This document shows positions 2,475 through 20,523 of a stretch of DNA of 61,261 nucleotides, piece by piece. This DNA is from Candidatus Udaeobacter sp. (GTDB taxonomy: Bacteria; Verrucomicrobiota; Verrucomicrobiia; Chthoniobacterales; UBA10450). Position numbers and translations under genes: made by a program. The notes under the pieces were generated by a model. That model searched no databases, was not told the DNA's origin, and saw nothing but the letters and a program-made list of their open reading frames with translations. How positions within the stretch are numbered: the first letter of the stretch is position 1; every line of letters begins with the position of its first letter. The stretch lies in the NCBI GenBank assembly GCA_013372845.1, contig JAALOD010000002.1:29428-90688 (forward strand). The letters run 5' to 3'.

Positions 2475-3591
2475 ATGAGCGCAAAGCAGCACACACGTTT
2501 ACTCTCGGCATCGAAGAGGAATTTGCGATCATTGATCCGGAGACACGCGAGCTTCGGTCGCACATCCAGGAGATCCTCGAGGGCGGGAAAGTCACGCTCA
2601 AAGAGCAAATCAAGCCGAGATGCACCAATCGGTCGTTGAGCTCGGCACTGAAATTTGCCAGTCGGTTGTCGATGCGCGTGCCCATGTGATCGAACTGCGC
2701 AGCAGACTCGCGGAACTCGCGGTCGCAGCGGACTACAGATTGCTTCGGTCGGCACACATCCGTTTTCGCACTGGCGCGATCAACTCATTACTCAAGGCGA
2801 GCGCTATCAGGAGATAGTCAAGGACATGCAGCAGCTCGCACGCGCCAATCTCATCTTCGGATTGCACGTCCATGTCGGAATTGCAGATCGTGAAATGGCC
2901 ATTCACGTCATGAATCAAGCGCGCTATTTCTCCCGCACATTTACGCGCTCTCGGTGAACTCACCGTTCTGGGTGGCCAGGACACGGGCTTGAAAGGTTAT
3001 CGACTCAAAGTGTTCGAACGCTTTCCACGCACCGGGATTCCAGACGCGTTCGAAAGCCTTTCGGAGTACGAAGATTACTGCAAATTGCTGGTCAAAACCG
3101 GTTGCGTCGATAACGCTAAGAAAATCTGGTGGGACATCCGGCTGCACCCATTCTTCGACACACTGGAAGTGCGCGTGTGCGATGCGCAATCGCGCGTGGA
3201 CGACACGCTCGCGATCGCGGCTTTGATTCAGGCGGTGATTGCGAAGCTGCACAAGCTGCTCCGGCAAAATATCACCTTCCGTGTTTATCGCCGACGGCTT
3301 CTCGACGAAAACCGATGGCGGGCGTCGCGTTACGGCATTGACGGTAAACTGATCGATTTCGGTCGCGAAACCGAAGTCGACGCACGCAGTCTGTTAAATG
3401 AATTGCTTGAGTTCGTCTCGACCGAAGTAAACGAACTCGACAGCGAGAACGAAATGGCGCACATCGAGCGCATCATGCGCGAAGGCACCGGCGCAGATCG
3501 ACAACTCGCAGCCTACGAGCGGACGCACGATATGAAAGCGGTGGTCGATCAGATCGTTGCAGAAACGTACGAAGGCTTAAGTCTCGCATAG
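2475..3591 (+). pseudogene. Carboxylate-amine ligase, YbdK / glutamate-cysteine ligase family 2; at least 3 frameshifts in the 5' half
   Basis: Joined frames read HTFTLGIEEEFAIIDPETRELRSHIQEIL / MHQSVVELGTEICQSV / GTHPFSHWRDQLITQGERYQEIVKDMQQLARANLIFGLHVHVGI / KGYRLKVFERFPRTGIP..WWDIRLHPFFDTLEVRVCD. One break near 2617 is CCGAG where CCG GAG is expected (a lost G). The last 200 codons (2989-3591) are intact. Confidence 0.75.
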
Positions 3592-7592: not shown

Positions 7593-7913
7593 ATGCTCGC
7601 AACCGCCACGGCCAAGATAGACCAATTGATTTGTGATTCATTGAGAGGAACGGACGAAGCGAACCTGCGACGAAACTATTCCGAGCACGATGAGTTCGTA
7701 ATCGTGGAAGAATTCCTGTCCCGGGAAGTGCTCAGCCGATGGCAGATGGAAGTGGCATCGCCGCTAAAAGAAGGCGAGTCACGCTACATTGTATCGATGC
7801 AGTACGTCACGGCCGGCGAGATGAATCCCTTCATGCGCTTTATCTCGAACATGAAAGATGTAGTCGCCTACTTCGGACTTCGCGGGGTCTTCGGCAAAGG
7901 CAAGGTGCGGTGA
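7593..7913 (+). CDS. Hypothetical protein (106 aa), first gene of the divergent operon
   Basis: ATG-initiated ORF whose stop overlaps the next start (GTGA at 7910-7913). No family recognised. Confidence 0.35.
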   Translation: MLATATAKIDQLICDSLRGTDEANLRRNYSEHDEFVIVEEFLSREVLSRWQMEVASPLKEGESRYIVSMQYVTAGEMNPFMRFISNMKDVVAYFGLRGVFGKGKVR

Positions 7914-8974
7914 GAAAAGTCCCCGCCATCCTCGACTGCGTCGCTGAAACGAGCGGCGTACAGATCGCGGGATTGAGCCTGCTCGATCGCTTGATTGTGA
8001 CCGTCCATCGGGCGGGTTGCGCTCCGATCTACCTGATCGCAAAAACCACGCCGCCAGCTCCGCGTGCCCGCGCCCTTGGCGTCGACATAACACTTGCTTC
8101 AGCAATACCACTCGATGAACCCGCGCTTCTCATTAATGGAGGTGTGTTCGTCGAGACCGCGGATCTTCAGCGAGTAATCGAAGGTGGAGGACAGCTGTTT
8201 TCGGCTGATGACGCTTGTCTGCCGGTTGCGATGACGGTGGGTGATGCCATGCCAGTGAGCGCCGGAAAAGTCGCCGTACCGGTAACTGACGCGACTTCGG
8301 CACGCGAGGCCGAGCGCCGTCTTTGGGCATCGCTCACCAGCAATGCGGATGGAATCGTCGATCGGTTTCTTAATCGCCCACTCGGGCGCTACCTGTCGAA
8401 AATTCTTATCCATGCTCCATTCTCGCCCAACCAAGTTTCGATCGTATCGACACTCGTTGGCATTTTGTCGGGGTGGTTTTTCGCCGGGGGATATTTTATC
8501 TCTGGCGCGTTTCTCCTGCAGATTTCCGCCATCATCGACTGCGTGGATGGCGATCTTGCGCGCGTCCTTTATAAAGAATCGCGCTTGGGCAAATGGCTCG
8601 ACCTGGTGGGTGACCAGTTCGTGCACATCGCTGTTTTCTCCGGCATCGGCTTTGGCTTGGCTCGGAGCGATCCCGCATCGCCCGCGCTTGCGCTCGGAAT
8701 CAGCGCCGTGCTCGGCGTAATCATCTCCTTCGCCGTGATTGTGTGCTCCATGCAACGCAAGAGCGGTCGCAAATCTTCTGGTCTCAAAAAATTGATTAAT
8801 GCCACGACCAACCGCGACTTCTCGCTGCTGGTCCTGTTGCTGGCCATAGCCGGCAAGCTCGATCTCTTCCTCTGGATAGCCGGGATAGGTGTACATCTCT
8901 TCTGGATCATTGCGCTTCGCTCGCAGTGGCGAGACGCCGGAAGTGCGCCGGCTATCTCGAAGAAATCCGCGTGA
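7910..8974 (+). CDS. CDP-alcohol phosphatidyltransferase with an N-terminal soluble nucleotidyltransferase-like extension
   Basis: Perfect CDP-OH-P motif DG(x2)AR(x8)G(x3)D(x3)D in DCVDGDLARVLYKESRLGKWLDLVGD, followed by several TM helices. The N-terminal ~150 aa (ILDCVAETSGVQIAGLSLLDRLIVTVHRAG) resemble a degenerate NTP-transferase, as in IPCT/DIPPS-type fusions. Start placed at GTG 7910 (GTGA overlap); the ORF is open from 7739. Confidence 0.8.
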   Translation: MRKVPAILDCVAETSGVQIAGLSLLDRLIVTVHRAGCAPIYLIAKTTPPAPRARALGVDITLASAIPLDEPALLINGGVFVETADLQRVIEGGGQLFSADDACLPVAMTVGDAMPVSAGKVAVPVTDATSAREAERRLWASLTSNADGIVDRFLNRPLGRYLSKILIHAPFSPNQVSIVSTLVGILSGWFFAGGYFISGAFLLQISAIIDCVDGDLARVLYKESRLGKWLDLVGDQFVHIAVFSGIGFGLARSDPASPALALGISAVLGVIISFAVIVCSMQRKSGRKSSGLKKLINATTNRDFSLLVLLLAIAGKLDLFLWIAGIGVHLFWIIALRSQWRDAGSAPAISKKSA

Positions 8975-9987
8975 AATTGGCGTTAAGATTTATTATCGCT
9001 GGAGCGGGCCTGGCGCTGTTTGCCTGGTTCGTACACCGAACCGGAGTAGATACGATCCCGCGCGCCTTCGCCACGCTCGGCTGGTCGGCTCCTCTTATTC
9101 TACTGCCCTACGCACTCGTTTATCTTCTCGATACTGTTGGATGGCGTTTGTGCTTGGGCCGCACGCTTCCTAAATCGATCAGCTTCGGAGCGCTATTTCG
9201 CATTCGATGGGCTGGTGAATCGCTCAACAATGTTGTGCCTTCCGCTTATCTCGGGGGCGAAGCGGTGAAAGTCTATTTGCTCCATAAACGCGGCCTGCCG
9301 GTTGTCGACGGCGCATCAAGCGTAATCATCGGAAAGACAGCGCAAGTTCTGGCTGAAGTGATTTTTATCGCGTTTGGAGCCGTGGCCGGCTCTTCCATTC
9401 TGCCGGCCAATTCACCTGCTCGCGCCGGCATGTTCGCAATTACCGGCGCGGCAACGGCACTCATCGGGATGCTTTTCTGGCTGCAGCATCGAGGAATCTT
9501 CAGCACATTCCTGGCGTTGACTCGGCGATTGCGGTTGCGCATTCGCGCGCTTACATCGCGAGCTGAAAGTTTGCGGCAACTCGATCGGCGAATTTTAGAT
9601 TTCTATCGCAATGATCGGCGACGCTTCCTTTCCAGCGTTACGTTTTATCTGGCGGGTTGGATCGCCGATTCACTCGACATTTTGCTCGTCTCATACCTGG
9701 TTGGAATGCCGTTGGATTGGAGTCAGGCACTGGCCTTTGAGGCATTCATCGGCGTCGCCAAGGCACTCGGGATTTTTGCCCCGGCCGCCCTTGGAGTGCA
9801 GGAAAGTGGCATTATTTTTCTATTTTACCTTTTCGGTTTGCCACCGGCGCTTGCGGCTCCCTACGCCATCATCCGCCGTGCGCGTGACTTGACGTTCGCG
9901 CTAATCGGTGGCGCGCTTCTCTATGCCGAGGAACCGCTGCGCGGTTTCGCGCAGCGCGTCGCGCGAGAAGTTGAGGCGCCGGCATGA
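8971..9987 (+). CDS. Flippase-like / lysylphosphatidylglycerol-synthase-TM-region family membrane protein
   Basis: Polytopic membrane ORF with LRFIIAGAGLALFAWFV..LLPYALVYLLDTVGWRLCLG..RIRWAGESLNNVVPSAYLGGEAVKVYLL, typical of the UPF0104/LPG_synthase_TM family. GTG 8971 overlaps the upstream stop (GTGA). Confidence 0.7.
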   Translation: MKLALRFIIAGAGLALFAWFVHRTGVDTIPRAFATLGWSAPLILLPYALVYLLDTVGWRLCLGRTLPKSISFGALFRIRWAGESLNNVVPSAYLGGEAVKVYLLHKRGLPVVDGASSVIIGKTAQVLAEVIFIAFGAVAGSSILPANSPARAGMFAITGAATALIGMLFWLQHRGIFSTFLALTRRLRLRIRALTSRAESLRQLDRRILDFYRNDRRRFLSSVTFYLAGWIADSLDILLVSYLVGMPLDWSQALAFEAFIGVAKALGIFAPAALGVQESGIIFLFYLFGLPPALAAPYAIIRRARDLTFALIGGALLYAEEPLRGFAQRVAREVEAPA

Positions 9988-10724
9988 AAGCCATTATCTA
10001 CGCCGCGGGGCGCGGAACTCGTTTGCAATCGGACTCGCCGAAAATCCTTCTCGAATTCGGCGGGCGAACGCTGCTGGAGTGGCACGCGTTGCGGTTACGT
10101 GAGGCCGGCGTGCGCGACGTCGTGCTGGTGACCGGCCATCTTCGCGAGCAGATCGCAGAATTGCTTCCCGGCATTTGCGTCCGGCACGACATTGCGGTAC
10201 GCGAGATTGTGAATCCACGCTTTCGAGAGGGGAGTTTGCTCAGCCTGAAACTCTCGCTTCCAGAAATCGAAAACAGCTCCGAGCCTCTCTTGTTGATGGA
10301 TGCCGATGTGTTTTATCCAACCGGGATGCTCGACCGTCTCACCGGATCGGTACACCCCACTGCATTACTGCTGGATCGTGAATTCTCCACCAACGACGAT
10401 GATCCCATGCTCGTGCCGGTAAAAAACGGACGACCGATCGACTTTCGCAAGCAATGGAGCGGCGACGCCGAGTTCGTGGGCGAATCAATCGGTTTCTTCA
10501 AGATCGCTCCGGTTGATTTTCCCCTTCTGATTAAGGAGACACGGGCGCGAAGTCGTGGCTCCAGTTGCGCGGATTCCTACGATGATGTCTTAAGGACGTT
10601 GGTGCTTGCCGGGCGATTCGGATACGAAGACGTGACCGGACTGCCGTGGATCGAGATCGACTTTCCGGCGGATGTCATCCAAGCTCGAAAGCAACTAGTT
10701 CCAGCGATCATTCGATCTGCATGA
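9984..10724 (+). CDS. Nucleotidyltransferase (LicC / phosphocholine- or phosphonate-cytidylyltransferase-like)
   Basis: 246 aa. MKAIIYAAGRGTRL is the GxGtRL signature. There are ATGA overlaps with both neighbours. Confidence 0.8.
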   Translation: MKAIIYAAGRGTRLQSDSPKILLEFGGRTLLEWHALRLREAGVRDVVLVTGHLREQIAELLPGICVRHDIAVREIVNPRFREGSLLSLKLSLPEIENSSEPLLLMDADVFYPTGMLDRLTGSVHPTALLLDREFSTNDDDPMLVPVKNGRPIDFRKQWSGDAEFVGESIGFFKIAPVDFPLLIKETRARSRGSSCADSYDDVLRTLVLAGRFGYEDVTGLPWIEIDFPADVIQARKQLVPAIIRSA

Positions 10725-11111
10725 TGCCGCACGATCTTCATCATTTTTTCGTCGGACAACATGTCTTCGTCACTGGCGCATCCGGTTTTATCGGCGGCCA
10801 TGTGGCGTCGTTGTTAATTCAGGCCGGCGCTCATGTTCGGGCGCTCACGAGATCGACAAAAAGGGGGCTACGACAGTGCGATCGATTGGGTGGAGGGCGA
10901 TCTCCTAGCTCGGGATTCGATTGACGCAGCGATGAAGGACTGCCGATACGTTTTTCACGTCGCGGGTGACTATCGGTTTTGGGCGCGCAATCCGCGTGAG
11001 ATTTTTGCCAACAATGTGCAGGGAACTATCAATCTTTTGGAAACAGCGAAGTGTTGCGGGGTAGAAAAAATCGTTTGTACGAGCACGACCGGAATTCTTC
11101 CTGACGGCAAT
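10721..11111 (+). pseudogene. 5' third of an hpnA-like NAD-dependent epimerase/dehydratase (SDR), interrupted
   Basis: MMPHDLHHFFVGQHVFVTGASGFIGGHVASLLIQAGAHVRALTR, then one frameshift near the A5/G5 run at ~10860, then IDWVEGDLLARDSIDAAMKDCRYVFHVAGDYRFWARNPREIFANNVQGTINLLETAKCCGVEKIVCTSTTGILPDGN. SDR similarity ends at 11111 and the remainder resumes at 14437. Confidence 0.75.
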
Positions 11112-11131
11112 CATTGCCGCAGCATCGCTGA

Positions 11132-11416
11132 TTGAAGTGTGGTGGCGAGGCGGAGGCGATTGGCGAATCCATCGGCTTTTTTCGCGTGGCGGCCTCGGAC
11201 ATTCCTCTCCTGATCGAGGAGACGAAAGCTCGACTTAGTGGGGCCGGCCGGAGGGAATCTTATGACAATATTCTTCGGGCGCTCGTTAGAGCCGGCAGGT
11301 TCTTCGCGGAAGATATAACGGGTATTCCGTGGACCGAAATCGATTTTCCCGAGGATGTCGCGTATGCGAATAATATCATCCTTACGGCGCTACAGGATAG
11401 GGCGGTGAGATTATGA
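11132..11416 (+). pseudogene. C-terminal fragment (~90 aa) of a second LicC-like nucleotidyltransferase
   Basis: GEAEAIGESIGFFRVAASDIPLLIEETKARL..SYDNILRALVRAGRFFAEDITGIPWTEIDFPEDV aligns with the C-terminus of the 9984-10724 product (roughly half to 60% identical by eye). No N-terminal GxGtRL part is present. Confidence 0.75.
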
Positions 11417-11462
11417 AGCGCCCCGGTTCCAACTGCGCCCTGCACAAAGCGTCCGCAACCCA

Positions 11463-12467
11463 ATGATCAATAGGCCTATTCACGTTGTTGGCGCAGGAGG
11501 AATCGGGGTTGCTCTGGCGTGGTCGTTGTGTCGCGCTGGCTGTAGTGTGACGGTTGTGGATGCCGATCCGCAAAAAGTCGAGCACGGACGGCGCGAAGGT
11601 TTGACTGTGGTCGGGCACGGGACAGAGCAGGCATCGTTCACGCTTTTTGAAAACTGGTTGCTCCCAACCGATGCGCTGGTTCTTTTATGCACTAAGACCT
11701 ATAACAACGCCGCGGTGCTTGCCGTATTGCCTGAGACATCGCGCCTTGTGCCCGTGCAGAACGGCTTCGATCCAAAACTTGATCAGCGAAATCATGCGGC
11801 CGAAGGAATTGCATCGTTTGTCTCGGAATGTTTGCGCGATCGGCCCGTCACACGCATCACCCGCCCCGGCGACCTCCACCTGGGTGCGCGGCGTAGTGTG
11901 TCTGCCGCTGAGAAAAATGATCTTGCCGAGTTGGCTCACGCACTTTCGCCAGGCGCGCTATTTGCTGTCCAATCGGTAGACGACGTCAGGCCGTACAAAG
12001 CGACAAAGCTGATGTACAATGCCGCCATCTCGCCTCTTGCGGCGGCGGCGGGTGTCGACAATGGTGAACTGCTAACCGACCCGGTGGCTAAGCGGCTTTT
12101 CTTTGGCTTGCTGCGAGAAAACTACACTATCCTTCGTCACGCTCGCATACCTTTGTCGAAGATTGGTCCCTTTCATCCGGACACCGTCTCACTTATTCTC
12201 AGAATCCCGGGTTTGCCCTCGATCATGGGTGCTTTCTTTCGTCCGTCTTTGCGGGGCACCTATTGTTCGATGGCTCCTGATATGGTCACCGACCGAACCG
12301 AGATCGATGCATACAATGGACACCTGATTCGGCTTGCGGGCGGATTGCCTTGTCCTCTGAACCGTGCCGCTTTTGCGCTCGTCAATAAGATCGTTCGCGA
12401 CCGGCTGATACCCGGGCGTGCCCATCTGCATGAATTGGAGGGAGCCCTGAAAGGAGAACCGGTATGA
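11463..12467 (+). CDS. Ketopantoate reductase (ApbA/PanE) family oxidoreductase
   Basis: 334 aa. Rossmann motif IHVVGAGGIGVALA; C-terminal domain KATKLMYNAAISPL..CSMAPDMVTDRTEIDAYNG is typical of the family. Confidence 0.7.
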   Translation: MINRPIHVVGAGGIGVALAWSLCRAGCSVTVVDADPQKVEHGRREGLTVVGHGTEQASFTLFENWLLPTDALVLLCTKTYNNAAVLAVLPETSRLVPVQNGFDPKLDQRNHAAEGIASFVSECLRDRPVTRITRPGDLHLGARRSVSAAEKNDLAELAHALSPGALFAVQSVDDVRPYKATKLMYNAAISPLAAAAGVDNGELLTDPVAKRLFFGLLRENYTILRHARIPLSKIGPFHPDTVSLILRIPGLPSIMGAFFRPSLRGTYCSMAPDMVTDRTEIDAYNGHLIRLAGGLPCPLNRAAFALVNKIVRDRLIPGRAHLHELEGALKGEPV

Positions 12468-13486
12468 AGAACTTGGTTACCGGGGGCGCCGGCTTTCTGG
12501 GGACTCATCTCGTCACCGAACTACTCGCGAGAGGGGAACCCGTTCGCGTGTTGGAAAGACCGGGGGCGGTGGTGGATCATCTGCCGCTGGACAAGATAGA
12601 ACTGGTTTTCAGCGACATCCGGGATAGTGCCACGGTGCAGAGGGCCACCACGGGGTGCAACTCCGTTTACCACCTGGCCGCGGATCCTAATCTGTGGCGC
12701 AGGGATCGTCAGGAATTCGACGCGGTTAACCATCTGGGAACGATCAATGTGATGGAGGCAGCTGTTCAGAGCGGCGCCCAACGGATCCTCCATACGAGCA
12801 CGGAAAGTATCCTTTCATCCGCGGACTTCAAGGGCGGTTCTGTCGAGCACTTGTTGAAGGAGGAAGATATGATCGGCCCTTACTGCCTGAGCAAGCTTCG
12901 GGCGGAACAAGCGGTTCACCGCATGATCGAAAAGGGAATTCCGATCGTGATCGTTACACCAACTCTACCCGTGGGCCCGGGTGATCGGAATCAAACACCG
13001 CCGACGCGAATGGCTGTCGCATTCTGTCGCGGAGAGTTACCTGCATATCTCGACTGCCGCTTCAACTTGGTCGATGCGAGAGATGTCGCCCAGGGAATGG
13101 TTCGGGCAATGGAACGTGGACGCCCCGGAATTCGGTACCTGCTCGGCGGAGCTAATCATCGCCTTCATGAGTGGCTGCAAATTCTTGGCCGCGCGGCGGG
13201 ACGCAAGGCGCCCCGTTGGAAAGTTCCGTTCGGTCTTGCGCTCACCGTGGGGTGGTTGAGTGAGCTTTGGGCTGACTACGTGACTGGCCGTATGCCAATG
13301 GCGACGCTTACCGGCGTCCGACTGGCGCGACGCTGCATGTATTTTGACCCGGCACCATCTCTCGCGGAGCTCGGTCTTAAACCGCGTTCGATCCAGGAGT
13401 CTGCCCGCGACGCGGTGACGTGGTACAGGGAACAGGGTTGGATCCCGCCTGGCTCGCCACCTGGCGCGAGCGCCACAGAACAATAA
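12464..13486 (+). CDS. NAD-dependent epimerase/dehydratase (hpnA / dihydroflavonol-reductase-like SDR), intact paralog
   Basis: 340 aa. LVTGGAGFLGTHL; HTSTESIL; catalytic YxxxK in GPYCLSKLRAE. ATGA overlap with the upstream gene. Confidence 0.8.
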   Translation: MKNLVTGGAGFLGTHLVTELLARGEPVRVLERPGAVVDHLPLDKIELVFSDIRDSATVQRATTGCNSVYHLAADPNLWRRDRQEFDAVNHLGTINVMEAAVQSGAQRILHTSTESILSSADFKGGSVEHLLKEEDMIGPYCLSKLRAEQAVHRMIEKGIPIVIVTPTLPVGPGDRNQTPPTRMAVAFCRGELPAYLDCRFNLVDARDVAQGMVRAMERGRPGIRYLLGGANHRLHEWLQILGRAAGRKAPRWKVPFGLALTVGWLSELWADYVTGRMPMATLTGVRLARRCMYFDPAPSLAELGLKPRSIQESARDAVTWYREQGWIPPGSPPGASATEQ

Positions 13487-14081
13487 TCAGGAAAAGCGGA
13501 GCGGCGATGGCGGACGCGACTAACAATGGTAACAAAACCTTGAGCCACGCACAGAATGAAACCAGAAACAGCGAATCATCGAGATCGAAGTAGATCGGAA
13601 GCTTGAATGCGGTGCTCGGATGAGTGCCGAGAGCGTGCAGCCGAAACACGATCAGGAAAGTCACTCCCACCGACAACCCTGCGACGCCCCCCATCACCGG
13701 GCCCCACCAGCCCATCTGTTCCCTTAGTCCGACGCCGATTCCAAGGAAAACCAGGACGTTCACGATCATGTCGCACGCCAGATCATACCAATGTCCACCC
13801 GGCGTAGCGCGGTCCGCCACGCGGGCCAGTTCTCCGTCAGCGCGATCGAGCATGGCCGAAATGAAAAAGATAGCTCCCCCCCACGCTGACCAAAAATAAT
13901 TTCCAACGCCAAAAGCCACGGCGGCCCCAATGCCCGTCAGGAGACGAAGATGCGTAATGTGATTCGGCATGATCGAGGTCTTAACCAGCGGGAGAATACA
14001 CCAGCGGGCCACCGCGTGCATTGGAGTTCGCGGGGGCGGAACGGACGTGGGAACAGCGGGTTCGGAGCGTCTTTTATTCAT
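13377..14081 (-). CDS. CDP-alcohol phosphatidyltransferase (second copy)
   Basis: Perfect motif in DRADGELARVADRATPGGHWYDLACD, and multiple TM helices. The start is uncertain (internal ATGs give MHAVARW.. and MPNHITHLRL..). The 3' end overlaps the convergent SDR gene by 110 nt. Confidence 0.75.
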   Translation of the reverse strand: MNKRRSEPAVPTSVPPPRTPMHAVARWCILPLVKTSIMPNHITHLRLLTGIGAAVAFGVGNYFWSAWGGAIFFISAMLDRADGELARVADRATPGGHWYDLACDMIVNVLVFLGIGVGLREQMGWWGPVMGGVAGLSVGVTFLIVFRLHALGTHPSTAFKLPIYFDLDDSLFLVSFCAWLKVLLPLLVASAIAAPLFLIIVLWRSRQVASQAGSNPVPCTTSPRRGQTPGSNAV

Positions 14082-14193
14082 TGTTTATCCACTTGAGTAC
14101 GCCCCATCTTGGCAGTTCGCACCGTATGCCCTCAAGTTTTTGCTGCGTTTACCGGAAATACTTGTCAGACTATCAGACGATAAATGAGTTGGT

Positions 14194-15162
14194 ATGGTGC
14201 TCGATGAAGCGTTTAAACTTTCGGCTCGGGACGAAGTCTTGCAACGGCCAGACATTCGCAAAACCGGAATTCATCCCAATTTCTGGTATCCGGTCGCTCG
14301 CTCAGACAACGTCAAAACGGGAAAACCTCACGGCGTTTCATTTGCCGGCGAGCCAATCGTTCTAGTCCGGACCGAATGCTGCTCGTGTCCAGACTTCGTT
14401 GATAATAAAAATGGTCTCTTCGCTAGATGCATCTTCGGCAACTTATTTATCGAGCTAGGAACGCCGGAGCGGCTGGCAAGTGAAGAGCGTCTTGCTTCGC
14501 CATCCCAATTCAAGGGACCCTACAAACGCTCCAAGTTTCTGAGTTATCTCGAAGTGAAAAAACGGGCGGACACTGGCTGGCCCATCGTAACCACGTTGCC
14601 CACCGCGCCCATCGGCCCGCACGACCTGAGACCGACGCCAACTGGAATGATCATAGTCGCATTTCTAAAGGGACGAATCCCGTTGCTTGCCCGTACGGGA
14701 CTCAACTTCGTCGACGTACGGGATTGCGCGCTCGGTCATCTTCTGACAATGGCGCGGGCTAAGTCCGGTGAGCGTTACTTGTTAGGCGGGATCAACCTGT
14801 GGTTGTGCGATTTTCTAAAGCGTGTCGAACCCTACTCGCGTCACCGCACGCCACGTTTTTATGCGCCCCATGGGCTCAGCTTTCTCACCGCTTGCGCCAG
14901 CGAAACTGCTGGCCGGTTTTGGCCGAATTGGACTCCGTTTGTGACGCGCGAATCCGTGCGAATGTCGCGCGGTCCACATTTTTCCAGCAATGCAAAGGCG
15001 GAAAACGAGCTCGGTTATGTTCCTAGCTCATCAATAGACCACGCTATTCATGATGCCGTGGAAGATTTCGTCGCGCGAGGTCTCGCGCCAGTGGCTGCCG
15101 ACCGATCAAAATGCCATGGCACGGAAGGCACAGGCGGTGTCCGTAGCTTCATTCCCAGATAA
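14194..15162 (+). pseudogene. Chimeric ORF: N-terminal ~60 aa of a Rieske-type oxygenase fused in frame to the C-terminal two-thirds of the interrupted hpnA-like SDR
   Basis: Residues 1-62 (GIHPNFWYPVARSDNVKTGKPHGVSFAGEPIVLVRTE) match the start of Rieske oxygenases but stop before the CxH..CxxH cluster. From 14437 onward GNLFIELGTPE..FKGPYKRSKFL..PTPTGMII..LNFVDVRDCALGH..GERYLLGG.. is colinear with the C-terminal part of the 12464-13486 product. Confidence 0.75.
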
Positions 15163-15361: not shown

Positions 15362-16475
15362 TAACTTGTCCGCCGTCTTCGAAGACTAGAAAAAGCTAGC
15401 AGCAGGATGCCGAAATGCGCGCTTCATGGCGACGCGGCCGTCGCATTGCCTTATAGTCAACCGTAATCGTGCGAGTAAAGCAGCGGCGCCGTAAGCTGAC
15501 GCAGAGGATCAAGCAAAAAACGCCTAAAGCACCAGCGCCGACGCATCCATTGATAGTCAACCAGCGTTTGGATGACGTCGGTATCGCGTGCGCGAATCGA
15601 CACAGTTTCTCCGACCCGCAGCTTCTCGCCGAAGCAGTTGCGAAATTCTCCGATCCGCTGGTTGAGCGCCAACCTGACCAACTCCGGGGCTCGTATGTAA
15701 CTCCACCGCAACGAGCGCTCTCTCGCTTAAAAGCAAAAAGCGTGCGCTTAACCGGCTGAACCAGCCCTTCACGTCAGCAGACGTCCTGCGTTCTCCTTTC
15801 TTCCCGCTGAAGTGATTTTCGCTTTCGCGCCATCGCGAACTGCGTCCACATGTGCCACGAGTCATTCCAACGAACCAGTTTGAATGGTGCAACAGCTCAT
15901 CAACGAATACCCGTGCAGAGAAAAAGCGCAATCACTGCCCGTTAAAAGAAGTCGGCGTATTGCTCGTCAATTAACATGCAGTGTGCTTCCCAGTTCGTCA
16001 TTTTTGCGTGCCTCGCCCGCATTTGGTCGGGCATCCCAAGGGCACTCCTGAGTCGAAGCGAATTGCGTGCACGGTGTCTTCTGGTCAAACGGGAGTAGGC
16101 CCGTGGCGATAATGGAATGATTGATCGCTTCTGTCACGAACAACTCTTCCACGGCGGCGAAATTTTGTTTTCCTCGACACGCCGTTTCGCTTTCTAGTCC
16201 AAGAGAAATTCTTGCTCGTGATGAAAAATAAAATTCTTTTTTGTTCATTTTTTGCGTCGATTTTGGAAGCGATTTCAGTCTCGCCTGCTGGCGAGGCAGA
16301 AACCAGAGCGCATGTGAATAAGTTGCTGAACCTTTTCTGAGAAACTTTTACCAGCGAGAATGAACGAGACGAGAGCTTCCATAAATGAACTGACGGAGCG
16401 CAACGCCACCTGAAGCCCGATCTAATCAATCGCTAACGCTCAGCGCAGTCTATTTCGGGTCCCTCGCATTTACGC
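15362..16475 (-). repeat. Direct repeat unit A (~1.1 kb) with degenerate minus-strand coding content
   Basis: Aligns along its whole length with 16709-17740 with many indels. It contains minus-strand ORFs 15967-16248 and 15457-15711. The plus-strand left end carries the perfect palindrome GTCTTCGAAGAC (15375-15386). Confidence 0.8.
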
Positions 16476-16708: not shown

Positions 16709-17740
16709 TAACTTGTCGGTCTTCGAAGACTAGAAAAAGCTAGCAGCAGCGATGCCGAAATGCGCGCTTCATGGCGACGCGGCGTTACATTGCCTTATAG
16801 TCAACCGTAATCGTGCGGTAAAGCAGCGGGCCGTGTTGGGCGAGAAGTAAAAGCTCAAGCATCGTCGCGCCGACCATCCATTGATAGCCAACCAGCGTCT
16901 GGATGACGTCGGTGTCAGTGTCGCGAACGTACACGGTTTCGTCCCGCTTTCGTCGAGTATTGCGAATTTCTCCCATCCGCTGGTTGTAGCGTTCAACCGA
17001 CCAATCCGGGTACTCGTATTGCAACTCCACCGCAACGAGCGCTCTGCTTAAAGTAAAAGCGTGCGCTTTAACCCGGATGAACCAGCCCTTCCACTGTCAG
17101 ACGTCCGGTTCTCCTTTTCTCCCGGAAGTGATTTCGCTTTGCGACATGCAGCACGCTCCACATGTGCCATCGAGTCATTCAACGAAAGCCGAATGGTGGC
17201 AACAGCTCATCAACGGAATACGCCTGTGCCGCAGAGAAAAAAGCGCAATCACGCTCGTTAAGAAGTCGGCGCATCGCTGGCCACAATTAATAATGCAGTT
17301 GCTTCCCAGTTCGTCATTTTGGTGTGCCTCGCCCGCATTTGGTCGGCATCCCAATGGCACTCGAGGTCGAAAATTGCGTGCACGTCAATTCGGTCAATCG
17401 AGAGCGCCATGGCGATGTGAATGGATTGATCGCTTCTGTCACGAACAACTCTGCGGCGAAATTTTTTTTTCCTCGGACACGCCTGTTCTCTCTTCTAGTC
17501 AGAAAATTTCTGTGATGAAAAATAAAATTCTTTTTTTCATTTTTTCTTGTCGATTTTGAAAGCGATTTCTATCTCAAGCCGCGGCGAGGCAGAAACAGAG
17601 CGCTGTGAATAAGTTGTGAACATTTCAGAACTTTTACGCGAGAATGAACGAGACGAAAGCTTCCCGAACAACGATGGAGCGCGCAACACCTGAAGCATCA
17701 ATATCGCTAACAGCGCAGTCTATTTCCCTCGTATTTACGC
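16709..17740 (-). repeat. Direct repeat unit B (~1.0 kb), a more fragmented copy
   Basis: Same order of blocks as unit A. ORF 16785-17030 (..VAVELQYEYPDWSVERYNQRMGEIRN..DTDVIQTLVGYQWM..) is the paralog of 15457-15711 (..NQRIGEFRN..DTDVIQTLVDYQWM..). Palindrome GTCTTCGAAGAC at 16719-16730. Confidence 0.8.
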
Positions 17741-17858: not shown

Positions 17859-19289
17859 ATGGACAAGAAATGCACAGCTGTGCAATTGTCAGCCGCGCTC
17901 AAGCCACAGATTAGCTCGATAGCTTTAAACGCTGGTTTTCGGCGTCGAACTTGTCGAAGCGAAGACAAATCGCTCACACTTCGTGTTCCAAACAACATCT
18001 ATCAGTTTTGATAGGTAATTACATGCCGCACTGCAGACTGCCATCGTGACGACATTCGCGCCCGCGCCCGTAAGTTCTGCTCTCCGTCTGGAACTAGCAT
18101 ACAAATGCCCGCGAGATGCCGCGCCGCTGGAAAATTTTACCGGAGCCGCCCGCCGACATAAACCAGGCGCACCGTGCCGGCTCAATCCTGCGGAACACGT
18201 TCGAATCTTTCGGTTGGTCGAACAATGAAATTGGCATGCCGCCGCTCGCCGTGGCCAGGCGCCCGCACGCACGCAACCGCTTTCATTTATGGCGGTGTCG
18301 GTCTTGGCAAGACCACCTGATGCAGCCATCGGCCAATATGTCTGGGCAAGAAGAAAAACGTGAAAGTGATTTATGTCTCCAGTGAACTGTTCATCAACGA
18401 GTTTATCGACGCGATCCAGCACAGTAATCTGGTCAAATTCCGGAAGCGCTATCGGCAGGTCGATCTTCTCCTGATTGACGACATCCAATTTCTTGGAGGT
18501 AAAGAGCGGTCCCAGGAGGAATTCTTTCACACATTCAATACGCTTTTCGATGGACATAAGCAGATCGTCCTTTCCAGCGATCGGCCCGCTTCCGAGATCG
18601 CAAATCTGGAGCACCGCCTGGTTTCGCGCTTTGAATGGGGACTCACCGCTGAGCTTCAACCGCCGGACATCGAAACTCGTATGGCGATCCTGCGGAAAAA
18701 GCGCGCGGCATGCAGATCGTATTGCGCGACGAAGTTTTCAATTTCTCGCCACCGCATTCGCACAAATGTGCGCCGGCTGGAGGGCGCGCTTATGCGAGTC
18801 GCATCGTTTGCGTCACTCAGCGGCAAGGAACTGACGCAGGAGGTCGTGGAGCATTTGCTAAAAGATATTTTGCAGGAGGAAGGACGCCACTCCGTCACGA
18901 TCGAACAGATTCAACGGCGCGTAGCTGAACATTTCGATGTGCGCTTGGCCGACATGACAAGCAAGCGGCGCCCGGCCAGCATCGCCTTTCCGCGGCAAGT
19001 GGCGATGTATCTGCGCGCGAGCTACCAAGGCGTCCCTGAATGAAATTGGCGATGCATTCGGGGACGCGATCACGGCACCGTGCTGCACGCCTGCAAACTG
19101 GTAAAGAAACGAATGGCCGAACAAGACAATATTCGCCAGACGATATCCTTCATTGACAGTTCCTTCAACGTTGAGTGCGTTTCGAGCTTGCGATTCCGAC
19201 TACTGCAGCTACAAACTTGGTCGCCGCGGCGATATGAATCCGCCGAGGTGGACTTGCCCGACACTGGAGAGATTGCGGTTGCCGAATAA
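17859..19289 (+). pseudogene. dnaA: Chromosomal replication initiator DnaA, full length but with many frame breaks (possibly consensus errors)
   Basis: Frame-hopping translation gives MDKK..LSAALKPQISS/DSFKRWFSASNL/..LRVPNNIYQF/IGNYMP..LQTAIVTTF (domain I), LNP/RNTFESF..SNNE, FIYGGVGLGKTHLMQAIG (Walker A, broken), VKVIYVSSELFINEFIDAIQHSNLVKFRKRYRQVDLLLIDDIQFLGGKERSQEEFFHTFNTLFDGHKQIVLSSDRPASEI..LVSRFEWGLTAELQPPDIETRMAILRKK (intact 18360..), RIRTNVRRLEGALMRV, VTIEQIQRRVAEHFDVRLADMTSKRRPASIAFPRQVAMYL and GTVLHACKLV. At least six frame changes. The 3' end is approximate. Confidence 0.85.
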
Positions 19290-19323
19290 AACGCGAAGCC
19301 TTACATCTTAAACTCGTCTCATA

Positions 19324-20412
19324 ATGAAATTTAGTGTAGCGAAAGAAAACTGCTCGAAGGTCTGCAGCAGGTCCAAAACGTCGTCAGCACCCGCACTACT
19401 CTTCCTCATCCTTTCCAATGTTCTTTTGCAGGCGCACGGTGACGAAATTCATCTCACCACAACAGATCTTGATGTCGGTACGCGGCAGTTGTGAAGCGGA
19501 CGTAGAAAAGAAGGAGCGACCACGCTTCCTGCTCGTCGCTCTTCAATATCGTCCGTGAACTGCCTTCGAGTGAGATTCAGATAGACGTTAACGGAAAAAC
19601 GCCGCCTCCATTCGGAGCGGCCAAAGCTTTTTCAAAATTCTCGGCTGCCCGAGGAAGAATTTCCACCGCTGCCGAAATTCGAGGACGCGAAGGTTGTCAC
19701 GATTCGGCAAAAGGATTTGCGCGACGGTCTGCGCAAAACTTCCTATGCGATATCAACAGACGAGACTCGCTACGCTTAATGGCGTCCTGTTCAGTTTCAA
19801 GGAGAACAAGCTGACGCTGGTCGCGACAGACGGCCGGCGGCTTGCCATGGTCGAAATCGAATTGGAATTTCCGCGCAGCCACGAGGCGGACTTTATTGTT
19901 CCAACGAAGGCGGTGACAGAATTGCAACGCCTGCTTGCCGATGATGGCGAAATCAAGGTCAGCATGGGCAGCGGGCAGATCGCTTTTGATCTCAGCAAGA
20001 CGCTGCTCGTCTCGAAATTGATCGAAGGCAATTATCCAAACTATCGCCAGGTCATTCCGTCCGAGGCAAAAGAGCGAATAAAACTCGAGCGTGAAACGTT
20101 TCTAAATTCGCTGCGACGCGTTTCGCTGCTCGCGAGCGACAAATCGCATTCGGTCAAACTAAATTTCGGCAAGAACAACATCGACATTACCGCTACGACA
20201 CCGGAGGTAGGCGAAGCGAAGGAATCAATCGCCGTTGCCTATAAAGGGCGCGATTTTTCCATTGCGTTTAATCCGAATTCCTCATGGCGCCGCTACGCGC
20301 ACTGACCGAGGACGAAGTTTTTCTCGATCTCATCGACGAGATGAGCCCAGGTGTATTGAAAATTCAGACTCCATTTCTCTACGTCCTGATGCCGATGCGC
20401 ATCAGCTCGTAG
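19324..20412 (+). pseudogene. dnaN: DNA polymerase III beta sliding clamp, frame breaks in the first third and near the 3' end (possibly consensus errors)
   Basis: MKFSVAKE..ILSNVLLQAHGDEIHLTTTDLDVG / ..LPSSEIQIDVNGK / ..FPPLPKFEDAKVVTIRQKDLRDGLRKTSYAISTDETRYA / NGVLFSFKENKLTLVATDGRRLAMVEIE...YKGRDFSIAFNPN / ..LTEDEVFLDLIDEMSPGVLKIQTPFLYVLMPMRISS*. The middle section 19694-20305 is intact. Confidence 0.85.
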
Positions 20413-20523
20413 ACTGCAGCGAGTTAAGTCGCGTTCAGCCCTCGTAGCCACAGCCCTGCGGGCCGTCTATGCGTGCGAAACAAATCTAAAGATGGACTTG
20501 TCCCAGGCCGGTGCCTGCAGCGT

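Follow-up and report, generated by a model that had tools for sequence, protein, structure and literature searches.

The locus analyzed here raises the question of how a gene came to be parted in two by a block of DNA that carries three intact genes of its own. It lies in a 61,261-nt stretch of Candidatus Udaeobacter sp. (contig JAALOD010000002.1, positions 29,428 to 90,688; hereafter the window, whose numbering is used unless another locus is named), and the interrupted gene, SDR-A, encodes an HpnA-like extended short-chain dehydrogenase/reductase (SDR). A preliminary description, made from the letters of the window, had read the interval from 10721 to 15162 as one HpnA-like SDR gene split by a block of about 3.3 kb, and the intact orthologs of the gene bore this out. 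The window holds a real insertion allele, called W below. We consider it likely that W arose by illegitimate recombination and that homologous spread and decay of the gene remnants followed.

Limits of the insert and reality of the allele

The boundaries of the insert were set by DNA alignment to intact orthologs, namely locus L001 and loci of a second insertion type, I, in which the W site is intact. L001 matched the window up to 11098 and resumed from 14447-14451. The intact site reads GGAATTCT/CGAGCC and the window GGAATTCT(T...TTTAT)CGAGC; the joins to the target overlap by 0-1 nt, and a join internal to the insert overlaps by 3 nt (GAA). The preliminary description had put the insert at 11109-14439 (3,331 bp), about 10 nt off at each end from the 11099-14450 given by the orthologs, and its join leaves seven surplus residues (PDGNLFI) relative to the intact proteins. 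Its frame arithmetic was right in that both lengths are 1 mod 3 and deletion restores the frame, but this is trivial for any insertion into an open reading frame (ORF). The CGGCAA, preceded by CTTC, that it found at both junctions sits within the insert, 6-14 nt from its ends, and is no more than chance would give: a 6-mer is common to two random 30-nt windows of this sequence with a probability of ~0.15. For these reasons CGGCAA was rejected as a recombination site, and with a true target overlap of 0-1 nt the microhomology-mediated part of the earlier reading was abandoned. Two features of the W target were noted in passing. In intact alleles it reads GAATTC^TCGAG, two abutting 6-bp palindromes, and an exact 10-nt identity (ACCGGAATTC; chance expectation ~0.2) links the target site at 11087-11096 with the Rieske fragment of the insert at 14262-14271.

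Intact orthologs of the reconstructed SDR-A are 374-377 aa long with identity of up to 92%, and in the alignment all of them read ..TSTTGIL/EPGTPERLASE.. at the W site. Both parts of SDR-A abut on a single ortholog, P0001, at residues 126/127, and precise removal of the insert restores the gene; the suspicion that the two parts belong to different paralogs, put forward earlier as a way to refute the split, was tested by this alignment and did not hold. Colinearity of the product with the paralog SDR-B at 12464-13486 was likewise seen again. The 5' part had been placed in a single frame, which was not the case, as it contains a +1 frameshift in an A5G5 run (Table 1). The same A5G5 is present in the Illumina contigs L113 and L012 (A4G5, the form of other W-type loci, in L003, L004 and L112), and the collection consulted has, in 26 blocks, the exact 100-aa ORF that results from the frameshift and that reaches across the junction as well; for these two reasons the frameshift is real. 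With residues 126 and 127 of P0001 parted by 3,352 bp, a frameshift, and independent deletions in the remnants, SDR-A is a pseudogene by insertion. Its 3' part is fused in frame to the Rieske fragment in a chimeric 322-aa ORF (14194-15162). Neither this ORF nor a DnaA fragment ORF had a record in the look-up, a result that is uninformative.

The alternative named in the preliminary description was an assembly chimera of two paralogous loci. The contig of the window is indeed a long-read metagenome assembly, and an error-rich patch lies near the locus, but both junctions were recovered in nanopore and Illumina assemblies that number in the dozens, are independent of one another and come from different studies. 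Several match the window at 100%, and the chimera is rejected. The left junction string was found exactly in 24 of the fetched loci and the right one in 14. Two Illumina contigs from unrelated runs match the window at 100% through both junctions, L110 (SRR11086695) over 10871-14832 and L111 (ERR12916233) over 10908-14652. Window positions 7863-15106 are colinear (~97%) with nanopore contigs from six samples, and positions 8734-15106 with an Illumina MEGAHIT contig (L012) of Ca. Udaeobacter sp. SMAG_U1005, a different species-representative metagenome-assembled genome (MAG). The exact KPR-like protein of the insert is on record in 482 blocks of the collection.

Table 1. Coordinates of the split SDR-A gene and of the block inserted into it
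Feature	Position	Strand	Description
SDR-A 5' remnant	10721-11098	+	Codons 1-126 of an HpnA-like extended SDR; 96% identity to P0001 residues 1-126; DNA homology to L001 stops at 11098
A5 run with +1 frameshift	10858-10862	+	In the 5' remnant, within A5G5 at 10858-10867; in-frame alleles have A4
I-type insertion site	11021-11031	.	Intact in the window; SDR-A broken there in L008 and 13 metagenome contigs, 9 nt lost
Inserted block	11099-14450	+	3,352 bp, +/-1 nt (shared T); between SDR-A codons 126 and 127; no target duplication or loss
Left outer piece	11099-11145	+	47 nt; native Udaeobacter 542-aa membrane-protein gene, codons ~385-400 (..LTAIIAAASLIEVWW); 100% to L013 9636-9682
NTase-B fragment	11146-11416	+	C-terminal ~90 codons of a second nucleotidyltransferase; truncated, probably foreign
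Shared core	11365-14361	.	Common to the W, I and K contexts; at least 98.5% identity everywhere
KPR-like (ApbA/PanE family) reductase	11463-12467	+	Intact; Pfam ApbA and ApbA_C
SDR-B, HpnA-like paralog	12464-13486	+	Intact; Pfam Epimerase; TIGR03466 342.0 bits (cut-off 367.65); 34-35% identity to SDR-A
CDP-alcohol phosphatidyltransferase B (CDP-OH-PT-B)	13377-14081	-	Intact; PF01066; converges on the KPR-SDR pair, an arrangement shared with Nitrospinaceae and Nitrospirales
Rieske oxygenase fragment	14194-14376	+	N-terminal 61 codons; PF00355; best NCBIfam match the SdmA N-terminus, 58 bits
Right outer piece	14377-14450	+	74 nt; 50 nt upstream and first 8 codons (MHLRQLIY, ATG 14427) of the 542-aa gene; GAA overlap to the Rieske fragment
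SDR-A 3' remnant	14451-15162	+	Codons 127 to end; 92.6% identity to P0001 residues 127-342; truncated or deleted in several lineages

Contents and origin of the insert

The block was found to carry what had been described for it, three intact genes (KPR-like reductase, SDR and CDP-alcohol phosphatidyltransferase) together with a C-terminal fragment of a nucleotidyltransferase (NTase) and an N-terminal fragment of a Rieske oxygenase. It does not begin in the one fragment and end in the other as had been thought, since its outer 47 and 74 nt belong to a third gene, native to Udaeobacter, for a 542-aa membrane protein. The left outer piece is 93.6% identical to the intact 542-aa gene of L120, and the homology stops exactly at GTGTGGTGG. 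The right outer piece is 98.7% identical to positions 9282-9358 of locus L013 and 96% identical to L119, whose 542-aa gene is intact. The NTase-B fragment aligns with the C-terminus of the resident NTase-A and, at 62% identity, with the NTase found upstream of the KPR gene in Nitrosomonas (L014); its truncation point is identical in L013. The Rieske gene, cut short in the window, runs on in L013 (..LVRTE/RGTVYALEDRCAHRQ..).

The nearest relatives of the KPR-like reductase outside Udaeobacter are ~70% identical (Nitrosomonas, Nitrospinaceae and Pirellulales), whereas those in other Chthoniobacterales reach 55-59%. Because the former exceed the latter, the core of the block is probably foreign. 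Its closest relatives lie outside the host lineage and its occurrence within the lineage is patchy, the pattern by which horizontal acquisition is recognized. The KPR-SDR pair is kept in 67 of the 77 loci L014-L090, which come from Nitrosomonas, Nitrospinaceae, Planctomycetota, Gammaproteobacteria and others, and a CDP-alcohol phosphatidyltransferase in such loci is often convergent downstream, as in the block, or directly upstream. Judged by these comparisons, the core is probably a horizontally acquired fragment of a widespread cassette. The term HpnA-like should be read as resemblance only, for SDR-A as for SDR-B. The intact SDR-A ortholog P0001 scores 298.3 bits on TIGR03466, below the curated cut-off of 367.65, and no hopanoid genes were seen in the locus.

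Three contexts of the core and the route into SDR-A

The core occurs in three genomic contexts. In W, the window type, the insert lies in SDR-A in the orientation listed in Table 1, and the site used in I is intact (GTGCAGGGAACTATCAATC). In K (L013 and, in part, L118) the foreign DNA lies inside the native 542-aa gene, between the genes for kynurenine 3-monooxygenase and kynureninase; L119 and L120 have this gene intact. In I (L008/L011 and 13 metagenome contigs) SDR-A is broken 77 bp upstream of the W site by a 60-nt filler and the inverted core, 14361 to 11365, and the W site is intact (GGAATTCTCGAGCC). The block ends differ between contexts (11099 and L013-9358 in W; 11365 and 14361 with filler in I; ~11146 and L013-12993 in K), and the target sequences of the three insertions are unrelated. 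Pieces of the 542-aa gene are carried by W and missing from I, and the filler is carried by I and missing from W. Loci with an intact SDR-A (L001 and L002) are without the block. Among species-representative MAGs the core was found in L011, L012 and L013, in one copy each and with KPR proteins 99-100% identical. In the genome scan the carriers bore the names Ca. Udaeobacter or 'uncultured Verrucomicrobiae' (MAGs, the MFD isolates).

Both pieces of the 542-aa gene stand to the left of the core in K, in an order opposite to that in W. The W insert equals L013 9636-12919 joined to 9282-9358, with the GAA overlap at 12919/9282 and 277 bp missing. Because the sequence of its right end lies upstream of the left end of the block in L013, W is a circular permutation of the K-type locus. 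We infer that W derived from a K-type locus, the copy inside the native 542-aa gene being its immediate donor. The permutation calls for a circular, tandem or template-switched intermediate, and since each representative MAG has a single core copy, the step from K to W would have been cut-and-paste or a transfer between genomes. The preliminary description had seen in the block a captured fragment of a paralogous lipid-head-group locus and not a classical mobile element. Capture holds, but paralogous locus is imprecise for a core that is probably foreign and whose donor copy appears to lie in the native 542-aa gene. Two further observations concern the K-type locus itself. At L013 9335-9775 the native 542-aa gene has an internal deletion of codons ~26-305, and the middle piece retained there is closer to L120 (88.6%) than to L119, though L119 is closest in the flanks, which suggests that the K-type block may itself have moved between lineages by recombination.

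We favor illegitimate recombination, by end-joining or template switching, because the overlaps are 0-3 nt and one event has a filler and a small target loss. In the proposed course of events, horizontal transfer would have brought a cluster fragment into Udaeobacter, where it came to lie in the 542-aa gene (K). The joining into SDR-A (W), by end-joining or illegitimate recombination, would then have used a circular or tandemly duplicated copy of K, or a replicative template switch, and a separate illegitimate event would have given I.

A different origin for I is that W and I are not independent, one having arisen from the other by inversion or rearrangement or by gene conversion with an intact allele. 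The core sequences of the two types are intermingled without fixed differences, and many secondary deletions mark the locus as rearrangement-prone, both of which fit such a derivation. Against it, I loci have the W site intact and W loci the I site, the pieces of the 542-aa gene are found only in W and the filler only in I, and interconversion would need the precise restoration of two sites. We regard this derivation as improbable. An attempt to order I from W by single-nucleotide differences in the core was given up, as none are fixed. Still less can be said for W and I as two states of a programmed, phase-variable invertible segment, which we consider highly improbable. The same core does lie in both orientations within one gene, but the positions in SDR-A, the block ends and the filler differ beyond what inversion would give, and there are neither inverted repeats at the ends nor a recombinase. 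The flanks of W and I moreover differ by 4-7% in nucleotides and hence belong to different lineages.

Signals of mobility were sought in the block and around it. The preliminary description had seen no integrase, transposase or terminal inverted repeats; domain scans of the block, and of those large ORFs of the window that were covered, found no transposase, integrase or recombinase, and a comparison of the two block ends found no pair of inverted repeats. There is no target-site duplication at W (GGAATTCT/T.. and ..TAT/CGAGC). Viral contigs, PLSDB and INPHARED gave no match, and carriage by a phage or plasmid is not supported. Without transposase, inverted repeats or duplication, and with ends that differ between W, I and K, the block is not a classical insertion sequence (IS) or transposon. 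It does not look like an integron cassette either, as the block and the scanned ORFs have no integrase and the ends are native coding fragments (attC sites were not searched with a dedicated model). A palindrome at the left end, CGGCAATCATTGCCG, was considered as an element signal and rejected, since it belongs to the coding sequence of the 542-aa gene and L120 has it in imperfect form.

These results bear on another explanation, that the core is a non-autonomous mobile element moved in trans through a circular intermediate and preferring SDR-A. Such an element would account for a core that is shared by three species-representative MAGs, occurs in three contexts or more and is nowhere below 98.5% identity, for the circular permutation of W relative to K, for a clean W insertion in which the target was neither lost nor duplicated, for two hits 77 bp apart, and for block-side ends (11365, ~11369 and 11372) that cluster within 8 nt; one copy per representative MAG is compatible with cut-and-paste. 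The three contexts have different block ends and unrelated targets, however, the 9-nt target loss and 60-nt filler of I are typical of illegitimate joining, and there are no terminal repeats. The W ends are ordinary coding sequence of a native gene, imperfect palindrome included, and the viral, plasmid and phage collections hold no match. We judge a mobile element unlikely. If true, a cargo-only mobile core would mean that in a dominant, uncultured genus of the soil genes can move with no transposase, integrase or terminal signal that is recognizable. Comparable known systems are the elements of the IS200/IS605 and IS91 types, whose transposition passes through a circular or rolling-circle intermediate and leaves no target duplication. 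The block is like them in having neither target-site duplication nor terminal inverted repeats and in a permutation that suggests a circular form. It is unlike them in that a TnpA, Rep or HUH gene is missing, that neither ends nor a target motif are conserved over the three insertions, and that the W ends are native coding sequence.

Returning to illegitimate recombination, the insertion would have knocked out SDR-A and set the KPR-like reductase and SDR-B co-directional behind the resident genes CDP-OH-PT-A, HpnL-like and NTase-A, and the head-group branch of the cluster was probably re-tooled by it. Selection for replacing SDR-A with SDR-B, the KPR-like reductase and CDP-OH-PT-B may explain the double hit and is put forward as its most likely reason; alternatively, the site may be break-prone or targeted.

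Several points weigh against this account. The K-type locus is complete in one nanopore contig (L013) and incomplete in an Illumina contig (L118). The core sequences of W and I intermingle, and those of I are no less diverse than those of W. Two hits as close as 77 bp would have a probability of ~4e-5 if insertions fell uniformly at random over a genome of 3-4 Mb, and the putative selection is the explanation offered for them. In I the KPR-like reductase and SDR-B run antisense to the operon, and the case for operon capture is the weaker for it. The 60-nt filler of I has no source in any fetched sequence. Finally, we found no literature on what a cassette made up of a KPR-like reductase, an HpnA-like SDR and a CDP-alcohol transferase does, and no promoter-like (sigma-70-like) site was detected upstream of the KPR gene.

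Spread, decay and the host cluster

The core is far more uniform than the DNA around it. Among 23 copies there are at most 41 substitutions in 2.8 kb. Between the window and the I-type locus L008, synonymous divergence was 0.084 for NTase-A, 0.145 for the HpnL-like gene and 0.145 for the SDR-A 3' part, against 0.000 for KPR, 0.016 for SDR-B and 0.011 for CDP-OH-PT-B. Between the window and the W-type locus L012 it was 0.12-0.17 in the flanks and 0.012-0.024 in the core. Overall, flanking genes are ~5- to 10-fold more diverged at synonymous sites than the core. In the 3' remnant, W-type loci follow the window without a difference for 50-350 nt and then diverge abruptly, at ~14500 (L010), ~14650 (L007) or ~14800. 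Past ~14800 the window is ~10% diverged from all other W-type loci, otherwise identical Illumina contigs included, and this point appears to be a recombination breakpoint inside the SDR-A 3' remnant. Leftward, identity declines gradually. Such a mosaic is the pattern that would be expected of an allele spread by homologous recombination, and we propose that W spread among lineages through homologous recombination in its flanks.

Decay of the remnants took several forms. A deletion 11011/11372 (360 bp, AA overlap) is present in L092 and L108 and a deletion 14417/14962 in L098. The W-type loci L005, L006 and L009 are truncated at 14665 and have lost CDP-OH-PT-A (equivalent to window 8105-8929), a loss that fits replacement of resident enzymes by cassette paralogs. 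L114 is without either remnant, and frameshift alleles with A5 and A3 occur. I-type loci have a deletion 14965/~11369 (L093) and a 9-nt-repeat deletion (L101 and L103). Several of these are microhomology deletions that arose independently in different lineages, whereas all short-read contigs have the three core genes at full length. The 3' remnant has a ratio of nonsynonymous to synonymous polymorphism (pN/pS) of 0.19 against intact orthologs, like functional neighbors, and the disruption is therefore recent relative to lineage divergence. As a separate observation, window positions 11365-11372, ~95 nt upstream of the KPR start, hold the block-side ends of three junctions within 8 nt (the I type, the 360-bp deletion of L092/L108 and the deletion of L093); a fragile site, or the limit of a minimal promoter, may lie there.

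Integration of foreign DNA by illegitimate, end-joining or homology-facilitated routes is known in bacteria, as is the ensuing spread of the new allele by homologous recombination, a gene-specific sweep. The locus agrees with this pattern in the lack of a recombinase, the 0-3 nt overlaps, a filler and small target loss in one event, and breakpoints that differ per event, as well as in an insert far less diverged than its flanks and in mosaic breakpoints within them. It differs in that one gene received the cassette on two occasions, at points 77 bp from each other and with opposite orientation, and in that W is circularly permuted with respect to the donor. Another parallel is cassette replacement in surface-polysaccharide or lipid head-group loci. 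In the switching of O-antigen and capsule loci, for example, homologous recombination in conserved flanking genes swaps whole allelic cassettes. There too, as here, a foreign biosynthetic block replaces residents in a conserved cluster and spreads across lineages, and here the resident SDR-A and, in some lineages, CDP-OH-PT-A have decayed or been deleted; entry in our case was, unlike there, by illegitimate insertion into coding sequence. The kind of finding, an illegitimate foreign insertion with a recombinational sweep, is known; what is unusual is the circular permutation together with the double hit in one gene.

SDR-A is the last gene of the plus-strand operon CDP-OH-PT-A / HpnL-like / NTase-A / SDR-A, and its start (10721) overlaps the stop of NTase-A (9984-10724). 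Upstream, on the minus strand, lie genes for a phosphoenolpyruvate (PEP) mutase fused to a MobA-like NTP transferase (PF12804), a phosphonopyruvate decarboxylase (Ppd; a thiamine pyrophosphate enzyme) and a class-V aminotransferase (Aminotran_5). The PEP mutase scores 382.8 on TIGR02320 against a cut-off of 319.55 and has Ppd and the aminotransferase adjacent, which marks a PEP mutase phosphonate cluster. A phosphonate lipid-type layout with a pepM-NTP transferase fusion, ppd, an aminoethylphosphonate (AEP) transaminase, a CDP-alcohol phosphatidyltransferase and hpnL has been drawn for Nostoc and Burkholderia (PMC5987646), and fusions of pepM (Ppm) with nucleotidyltransferases have been surveyed (PMC6697681). 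The host locus is like such clusters in its PEP mutase-PF12804 fusion, Ppd, class-V aminotransferase, CDP-OH-PT, HpnL-like membrane protein and second NTP transferase, and unlike them in that the Udaeobacter cluster terminates in an HpnA-like SDR, the gene that was disrupted. The cluster occurs in two neighborhoods, PPDK...MFS and glyoxalase/GCS2...dnaA, and the W allele is present in both.

Further observations concern the surroundings of the operon. The CDP-OH-PT-A ORF has 411 aa in the window versus 355 aa elsewhere, and upstream of it (region 7640-7860) a stretch at 7643-7822 has no alignment to related loci; L002 has a 2OG-Fe(II) oxygenase gene there. A GCS2-family ORF (2989-3591) has 200 aa in the window, whereas L002 and L005 have 372 aa. 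A direct duplication in the window, ~1.1 kb at 80% identity (15362-16475 and 16709-17740), takes in the hypothetical-protein region that separates SDR-A from dnaA in the intact-type L002, and it adjoins the presumed replication origin. ORFs appear broken from ~15.2 to 31 kb and intact elsewhere in the window. In dnaA/dnaN (17859-20420) there are ~35 indels versus L002, nearly all 1-nt deletions in the window and often the G of a CG, and long stretches of 100% amino-acid identity alternate with garbled ones. Genome decay was rejected as the reading of these frameshifts, a low-quality patch of the nanopore contig being more likely.

Candidatus Udaeobacter is among the most abundant soil bacteria. 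We know of no cultured representative, and its genome dynamics can therefore be read from sequence only. Annotators should take both SDR ORFs, 5' and 3', and the chimeric Rieske-SDR ORF as pseudogene remnants. The locus offers a clean and dated series, from the intact gene through K, W and I to deletion derivatives, which would show the entry and relocation of a foreign biosynthetic cassette without a mobility gene. The cassette then knocks out and probably replaces a resident head-group enzyme and sweeps species-level lineages while the remnants are erased stepwise, and the double hit within 77 bp makes selection versus targeting testable in natural populations.

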